IMG/VR virus record: IMGVR_UViG_3300029490_000143
Length of the DNA stretch: 7,870 nucleotides
Origin: a virus
Lineage: Duplodnaviria > Heunggongvirae > Uroviricota > Caudoviricetes
Reading direction: 5' to 3' (one strand)
Part shown: positions 4,164 to 4,600 of the stretch, one piece after another
Numbering within the stretch: position 1 is the first letter of the stretch
How the letters are laid out: the number at the start of each line of letters is the position of its first letter
Translations under genes and position numbers: made by a program
The notes under the pieces: model-generated
The model's input: the letters and a program-made list of their open reading frames with translations, nothing else
The model's database searches: none
Told to the model about the DNA's origin: nothing

Positions 4164-4190
4164 CGCAAAGTCTCCGCAATTACACGCAAG

Positions 4191-4216
4191 AAAAAACCGC
4201 CATCAGGCGGCTTGGT
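4191..4216 (-). terminator. Candidate intrinsic terminator upstream of xis (hairpin CCGCC-TGAT-GGCGG followed by T6 on the - strand)
   Basis: On the + strand the sequence reads AAAAAACCGCCATCAGGCGG (4191-4210). On the - strand this gives a 5-bp GC stem, a 4-nt loop and TTTTTT. The stem is short, so confidence is moderate. Confidence 0.4.
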
Positions 4217-4309
4217 GTTCTTTCAGTTCTTCAATTCGAATATTGGTTACGTCTGCATGTGCTAGCCTGGTTGATAAAAAATGGTTGCGACTGGCAGCAA
4301 GGAGGAATC

Positions 4310-4600
4310 ATGGCTGATTTGAGAAAAGCAGCGCGTGGTCGGGAATGCCAGGTAAGAATCCCTGGCGTATGTAATGGCAATTCTGAGACGTCTGTACTGG
4401 CACATATCCGGCTGGCTGGATTGTGCGGTACCGGTATCAAACCGCCAGACCTGATTGCCACCATTGCATGTTCTGCCTGCCACGACGAAATCGACCGCCG
4501 CACACATTTTGTCGATGCTGCATATGCAAAAGAATGCGCGCTGGAAGGTATGGCGAGAACACAGGTTATCTGGCTGAAAGAGGGGGTTATTAAGGCGTGA
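4310..4600 (+). CDS. ybcO: YbcO-like nin-region protein (DUF1364, Cys-rich putative nuclease)
   Basis: ATG at 4310 preceded by GGAGG (4301-4305) gives a 96-aa protein [24 protein letters not shown]...[12 protein letters not shown]. The longer track ORF from 4118 is an unsupported N-terminal extension. The protein resembles DLP12 YbcO as I recall it, and its stop overlaps the rusA start. Confidence 0.8.

Follow-up and report, generated by a model that had tools for sequence, protein, structure and literature searches.

Why does a lambda-type excisionase gene lie almost directly beside the nin-region gene ybcO in this stretch of DNA? The window, by which we mean the whole 7,870-base stretch that was analysed, covers the left part of a prophage that is inserted at the classical lambda site, with ybhC on one side and ybhB on the other. 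Only 146 bp (4164-4309) separate xis from ybcO, in an interval that in relatives contains cI, cro, cII, N, O and P. The initial annotation described the spacer as a novel joint between the int-xis module and nin-region genes, with loss of early-region sequence. From comparison with phage and chromosomal sequences, we conclude that a defective lambdoid prophage at this site, att-lambda, has very probably undergone an internal deletion, of which the joint is the scar.

The prophage on either side of the joint

The left of the window is chromosomal. The 3' part of ybhJ (16-1245, plus strand) is followed by a cluster of REP-type palindromes (about 1250-1470, without strand) and by ybhC (1479-2762, minus strand). 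The palindromes between ybhJ and ybhC are REP/BIME-type units; a unit of ~93-103 bp is present in two copies in the window and in most relatives, and in one copy in XJ5.2. The left end of the prophage is marked by the attL core, GCTTTTTTATACTAA, which was read directly at 2809-2823 (no strand), adjoins ybhC and lies 47 bp from the ybhC start. Beyond it, int (2897-3967, minus strand) encodes an intact lambda-type tyrosine integrase of 356 aa, with Pfam matches to Phage_integrase and Arm-DNA-bind_1 and 99% DNA identity to lambda int, and xis (3945-4163, minus strand) encodes an intact excisionase of 72 aa (Pfam Exc, E=3.9e-41), the exact protein being the entry named VXIS_BP434. Annotation carried over from phage 434 (curated record OL657226) places the pI promoter at 4158-4189 (minus strand) and, within it, the CII-binding site TTGCGTGTAATTGC at 4176-4189 (minus strand). 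An intrinsic terminator just upstream of pI, made up of CCGCCTGATGGCGG and a following TTTTTT (4188-4210, minus strand), is annotated as such in OL657226 and was also recovered by a scan for terminator-like sequences (4213-4194, minus strand) and as a hairpin in the centroid fold. Rfam families had no match in the window.

The genes to the right of the spacer are all on the plus strand. ybcO (4310-4600) encodes an intact putative nuclease of 96 aa (Pfam YbcO, E=6.3e-41), rusA (4597-4959) an intact Holliday-junction resolvase of 120 aa (Pfam RusA, E=6.4e-23), and ylcG (4956-5096) a protein of 46 aa that has no match in the local copy of Pfam and whose exact protein is named YlcG family, or YLCG_ECOLI. 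They are followed by a gene for a Q-type late antiterminator of 125 aa (5182-5559; Pfam Phage_antitermQ, E=2.2e-51). A longer plus-strand open reading frame, 4118-4600, was rejected as a gene: it is an in-frame upstream extension of ybcO that runs antisense to xis from a TTG start and has no ribosome-binding site. Judged from these matches, the prophage is made up of a lambda-type int-xis segment on the left and a ninE-ybcO-rusA-ylcG-Q module of the phage-82/DLP12 type on the right.

Structure and distribution of the joint

The segment from 2809 to 4264 matches lambda 27724-29179 with 99.0% identity (megablast against 50,697 phage records), and lambda 27724, the first base of this match, is also the first base of the annotated att core (27724-27738). 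The lambda-matching stretch comprises attL, int, xis, pI with its CII site, the terminator and the last 19 codons of orf55. It ends at window position 4264 in lambda and in every lambda-like relative examined: identity with lambda runs through ...CATGTGCTA (4264), after which lambda reads TCTGCGCC and the window reads GCCTGGTTG. Lambda (NC_001416) thus resembles the window from the attP core to the orf55 tail, whereas its own nin region reads ninE-ninF-ninG(rap)-ninH-ninI-Q and has no ybcO, rusA or ylcG. The match to ninE-ybcO begins at 4261 and is followed by rusA, ylcG and Q. The switch was placed by base-by-base comparison with lambda and three E. coli relatives (XJ5.2, MLI110 and AR_0369). 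The two parental alignments overlap by 4 bp, GCTA (4261-4264, no strand), with zero unaligned bases, and hence no filler DNA, between them; we therefore place the switch within GCTA, in agreement with the position of about 4262 that had been proposed from the sequence alone, and the alignment does not put the lambda/non-lambda switch anywhere else. A random joint would show an overlap of 4 bp or more with a probability of 0.016. The 40-mer across the joint (4246-4285) reads GTTACGTCTGCATGTGCTAGCCTGGTTGATAAAAAATGGT.

Both breakpoints are intragenic, one in orf55 (lambda 29179) and the other in ninE. What is left of orf55 (lambdap35; 4203-4264, minus strand) is its last 19 codons and stop codon; this remnant translates to AHADVTNIRIEELKEHQAA followed by the stop, the C-terminus of the 55-aa lambdap35 protein, and the N-terminal 36 codons are gone. 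What is left of ninE (4261-4317, plus strand) is its last 18 codons and stop codon, without a start codon, and its translation equals the C-terminal end (18 residues) of NinE of XJ5.2, a protein of 56 aa. The TGA of this remnant (4315-4317) overlaps the start of ybcO, whose ATG is at 4310 (ATGGCTGA). The GGAGG that had been assigned to ybcO as its own ribosome-binding site is at 4300-4304 and is indeed native to ybcO, embedded in the 3' end of ninE.

A search for repeats between 3900 and 4700 gave only short chance pairs. Neither an IS nor an IS end is present at the joint, where every nearby base is lambda or ninE sequence and the two alignments abut; the closest IS begins at 5641. The original statement that no IS or repeat is visible at the switch is borne out, and since the joint is without IS sequence, an IS-mediated origin is unsupported; sister lineages that carry an IS1 at the joint illustrate how such an origin appears.

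The two sides of the joint are collinear with one parental prophage. The best relative on both flanks is AR_0369 (NZ_CP027140.1; 99.7% on the left and 99.9% on the right), whose prophage is at the same ybhC/att-lambda site, and window positions 1-4264 and 4261-5648 map to it in unchanged order and on the unchanged strand, 12,285 bp apart. AR145.2 (NZ_CP189392.1) has the same layout, with attR adjoining ybhB, and its right part is 98.1% identical to the window. Both strains share with the window the integration site, the int-xis-orf55 left end and the ninE-ybcO-rusA-ylcG-Q-lipocalin right part, but they retain the ~12.3-kb early region that is missing from the window and are without its IS256-family and IS2-like insertions. 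In AR_0369, the nearest relative that keeps the interval, the intervening DNA carries from left to right the rest of orf55, ea8.5, an ea22 fragment, a TraR-like gene and homologues of orf63 and orf60a; then exo, bet, gam, kil, cIII, an ea10-like gene and N; and finally a cI-type repressor gene, cro, cII, O, P, ren, three small genes, ybcN and most of ninE. The loss of early region that had been proposed therefore stands, whereas its proposed size, about 10 kb, was some 2 kb too low, the breakpoints being 12,285 bp apart in AR_0369 and the equivalent points ~13.0 kb apart in lambda. By its gene content, the remnant is without immunity, replication or N. We take pL and pR (and nutR) to fall in the deleted interval as well, by lambda's known map.

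Lambdoid genomes are mosaics, and a boundary between lambda-type and other sequence could in principle be an ancestral gene order, in which phage-phage recombination gave rise to a lambdoid lineage that naturally has ybcO beside xis. The nin-Q module of the window is common to many lambda-like phages at 93-98% identity, which speaks for this explanation, but free phages that carry it (e.g. IdasGreatGrand, PhiR70_1, 4A7 and 1W) have a complete ninE upstream, and none of the 50,697 phage records spans the joint. Complete E. coli genomes give the same picture: the int-xis-orf55' segment is present over at least 80% of its length in ~1,960 of 5,426 genomes, counted at any chromosomal position, and a megablast search with 4000-4500 found the xis side within 750 bp of the ybcO side in 0 of the 5,426. 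Scans of species-representative genomes, IMG/VR and JGI metagenomes found no copy of the exact 26-mer over the joint and no true match to a 20-mer over it; the five 20-mer matches that were returned, from MAGs of Bacillota and Hungatella and from two viral contigs, are identical in those 20 bases only, as expected by chance. Exact-protein look-ups with YbcO, YbhC and the transposase of the IS256-family element returned unrelated contexts only; the exact YbcO protein is widespread, with a full ninE upstream in all loci sampled. The searches thus brought to light no intact prophage with the xis-ybcO adjacency in phage records, E. coli genomes or metagenomes. A phage with this gene order would, moreover, be without immunity, replication and N, and the boundary cuts two open reading frames internally. 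Because the boundary lies inside two open reading frames and is absent from phages, mosaic exchange is unsupported, and we regard an ancestral or mosaic order as highly improbable.

Among the collections searched, the joint is carried by one sequence only, which raises the question of whether it is real. A chimeric assembly join or an engineered deletion would account for this uniqueness; the window is also rich in repeats of the kind that can trouble assemblers (the REP cluster and two IS elements), and an NheI site, GCTAGC, is present at the joint itself (4261-4266). Misassembly is nonetheless unlikely, because each breakpoint falls in unique, non-repeated sequence and the two have the order and orientation that are correct for a single prophage, which is the pattern of a deletion rather than of repeat collapse. 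An engineered junction was considered and rejected: the NheI site is wholly native to ninE, nothing CTAG-compatible is present on the lambda side, and with every base accounted for by the two parents, no room is left for FRT, lox or another scar. We therefore consider an artefact of either sort improbable, and we continue to favour an internal deletion in a resident prophage.

Defective prophages of this kind have been described at the same site. LambdaB is a 12.1-kb defective prophage at ybhC-ybhB in the E. coli B strains REL606 and BL21 (PMC4395058), and lambdaCr is a defective lambdoid prophage at ybhC-ybhB in Crooks (PMC3032704, Table 2). LambdaB, for which REL606 served as the model since DE3 occupies att-lambda in BL21(DE3), resembles the window in having a lambda-type int-xis-orf55 left end at ybhC-ybhB and an internal deletion joint. 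In REL606, however, the segment int-xis-orf55-ASCH-DUF4752-DUF551' is joined to lysC-terminase, there is no ybcO-rusA-ylcG-Q, and the backbone is a different one. The gene string ninE-ybcO-rusA-ylcG-Q of the window is that of the nin region of DLP12 (K-12) and phage 82, and DLP12 in K-12 derivatives has ~95-96% DNA identity to the window over ninE'-ybcO. DLP12 is integrated at argU and has an integrase of its own (PMC3032704, Table 2). The DLP12-type loci examined, and K-12-derived genomes, have a complete ninE, unlike the window, in which ninE is truncated and fused to the lambda xis side at att-lambda. Judged against these sequences, the exact scar is new, whereas the kind of object to which it belongs, a deletion in a defective lambdoid prophage, is well known. 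The exact scar could act as a lineage marker for the source strain; beyond annotation, its importance is small.

Origin of the deletion and erosion in sister lineages

At the joint, two points of one parental arrangement are fused directly, in the same orientation, at a shared GCTA. The 4-bp microhomology suggests the mechanism: the structure of the scar would be consistent with RecA-independent illegitimate recombination at short homology, either by replication slippage or by misjoining of ends. Illegitimate recombination was one of two mechanisms proposed in the initial annotation, and the microhomology and the lack of an IS speak for it; the other, mosaic exchange, is not supported, given the intragenic boundary and its absence from phages. 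The deletion may have occurred in one step, or it may have been the last of several erosions. In either case, the joint is an ordinary step of prophage decay.

Other E. coli strains have lost overlapping parts of the prophage by different routes. An IS1 lies between the left arm and ybcN in XJ5.2 and 2017.15.02CC, and between the arms in HeN100 and 63-2. In MLI110, truncated recT/bet and ybcN genes meet at a microhomology of 5 bp, GGTAA. In TOK-001, an orf60a-like gene is fused to ybcN and an IS2 lies between ninE and ybcO. HeN100, 63-2 and 74-2 show further arrangements. All seven strains keep int-xis and rusA-ylcG-Q-lipocalin and have lost the immunity/replication region, and among relatives that keep a ybcN/ninE-type nin region, the end points in the window are the most extreme on both sides. 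Since other E. coli show IS1 joints or joints at other microhomologies at the same locus, these comparisons indicate that erosion of this att-lambda prophage is recurrent. The locus is a clear example of one resident lambdoid prophage being whittled in various ways in different E. coli lineages, by microhomology deletions in some and by IS1 in others.

These relatives also offer intermediates for a history of more than one step. A first deletion, bounded by IS1 or of another type (compare XJ5.2, 2017.15.02CC or MLI110), could have taken the early region, and a second, much smaller one of ~2-3.6 kb could then have taken ybcN, most of ninE and the IS or scar left by the first. XJ5.2 retains only 2.1 kb, IS1 included, between the two breakpoints, such that an intermediate like it would need only a 2.1-kb final deletion, and the 12.3 kb may therefore not have been lost in one event. 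In 2017.15.02CC, the IS1 is just 60 bp to the right of the left breakpoint of the window, and the right flank of XJ5.2 equals that of AR_0369 in closeness to the window (99.86%). On the other hand, no IS1 fragment is left in the window, and the final joint would still be an IS-free microhomology deletion, such that several steps would alter the history of the joint and leave its nature unchanged. We consider such a stepwise history possible, but rather unlikely. An internal deletion at GCTA is the reading we retain for the joint itself.

Several further features of the sister lineages are of note. MLI110 (~10535) and TOK-001 (~7881) have different sequences on the left of their deletions and a common right end point, in ybcN at the GGTAA motif, which may reflect a hot spot or shared ancestry. 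TOK-001 is the best match to the chromosomal flank of the window, with 8 mismatches over 4264 bases, but reaches only 96.9% identity in the nin-Q flank, for which XJ5.2 and AR_0369 are the best matches (1 mismatch and 1 gap over 1388 bases). Since the two flanks are closest to different strains, prophage and host backgrounds appear to have been reassorted among lineages. The IS2 of TOK-001 occupies positions 8327-9555 of that locus, and the annotated ybcO open reading frame there is lengthened to 339 nt. By analogy with the IS2 and IS10 insertions that activate rusA in K-12, which have a similar position (PMC1636454), this IS2 could be a natural case of rus-type activation.

Predicted expression of the retained genes, and insertions on the right

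The genes int, xis, ybcO, rusA, ylcG and Q are intact in the window, but the promoters or activator that natively served them are lost. Transcription of the nin region in an intact lambdoid phage starts at pR and relies on antitermination by N. In a consensus scan, the plus strand from 2937 to 4612 was free of sigma-70-like sites, in line with the earlier statement that no obvious sigma70 promoter precedes ybcO. Nor did the joint itself create a promoter that we could find; the candidate TTGATA at 4271-4276 is native ninE sequence and has no usable -10 element. The expression of ybcO-rusA-ylcG-Q had been called unclear for want of an obvious promoter, and with the pR-driven, N-antiterminated transcription lost and no sigma-70-like site upstream, the block is most likely silent. 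There is a precedent for this prediction, in that the rusA gene of DLP12 is promoterless and quiescent until IS2 or IS10 inserts upstream (PMC1636454; also PMC4118853).

On the left of the joint, pI needs CII and cII is deleted, pL is presumably lost, and the terminator at 4188-4210 stands before xis. For these reasons, we expect next to no expression of int and xis, and an element that stays fixed in the chromosome. The att-lambda remnant of this strain would thus not be inducible, would not replicate and would confer no immunity.

We also considered whether the deletion was a selected step of domestication rather than neutral decay. Many independent lineages at att-lambda keep exactly int-xis and ybcO-rusA-ylcG-Q-lipocalin and lose the toxic and regulatory middle of the prophage, a pattern that forms the basis for this idea. 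By bringing ybcO-rusA to within 150 bp of xis, the joint might expose these genes to an unrecognised promoter antisense in int/xis, or to read-through, with low constitutive levels of YbcO and RusA as the result. If so, the remnant would supply the host with a back-up for Holliday-junction resolution or with an anti-phage function. We give this idea little credence, and return to ordinary decay as the account of the joint.

The right-hand part of the window has been altered by two insertions. The first, an IS256-family element (5641-6960, minus strand), is 1,320 bp long, encodes its transposase at 5680-6891 (minus strand) and is flanked by an 8-bp target duplication, CATATAAC, at 5633-5640 and 6961-6968. 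It is inserted 82 bp past the Q stop codon. A weak promoter-like site (TGGAGA-18-AATAAT) at 5531-5560 extends over the Q stop codon, roughly where one would expect a late promoter; the insertion is ~80 bp downstream of this site and may part Q from its target. The second, an IS2-like element (7195-7870, minus strand; the window ends inside it), is 96% identical to the IS2 of TOK-001 and AR145.2. It cuts the lipocalin gene of the prophage, of which a 3' fragment (7043-7194, minus strand) with the C-terminal 52-62 codons is left; an exact-protein look-up did not find this IS-truncated open reading frame in the protein collection. An identical copy of the IS256-family element is present in one of the 5,426 complete E. 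coli genomes (strain S43), and its exact transposase is otherwise named mainly from Acinetobacter. The lone identical E. coli copy and the Acinetobacter names together suggest a recent inter-genus acquisition of this element.
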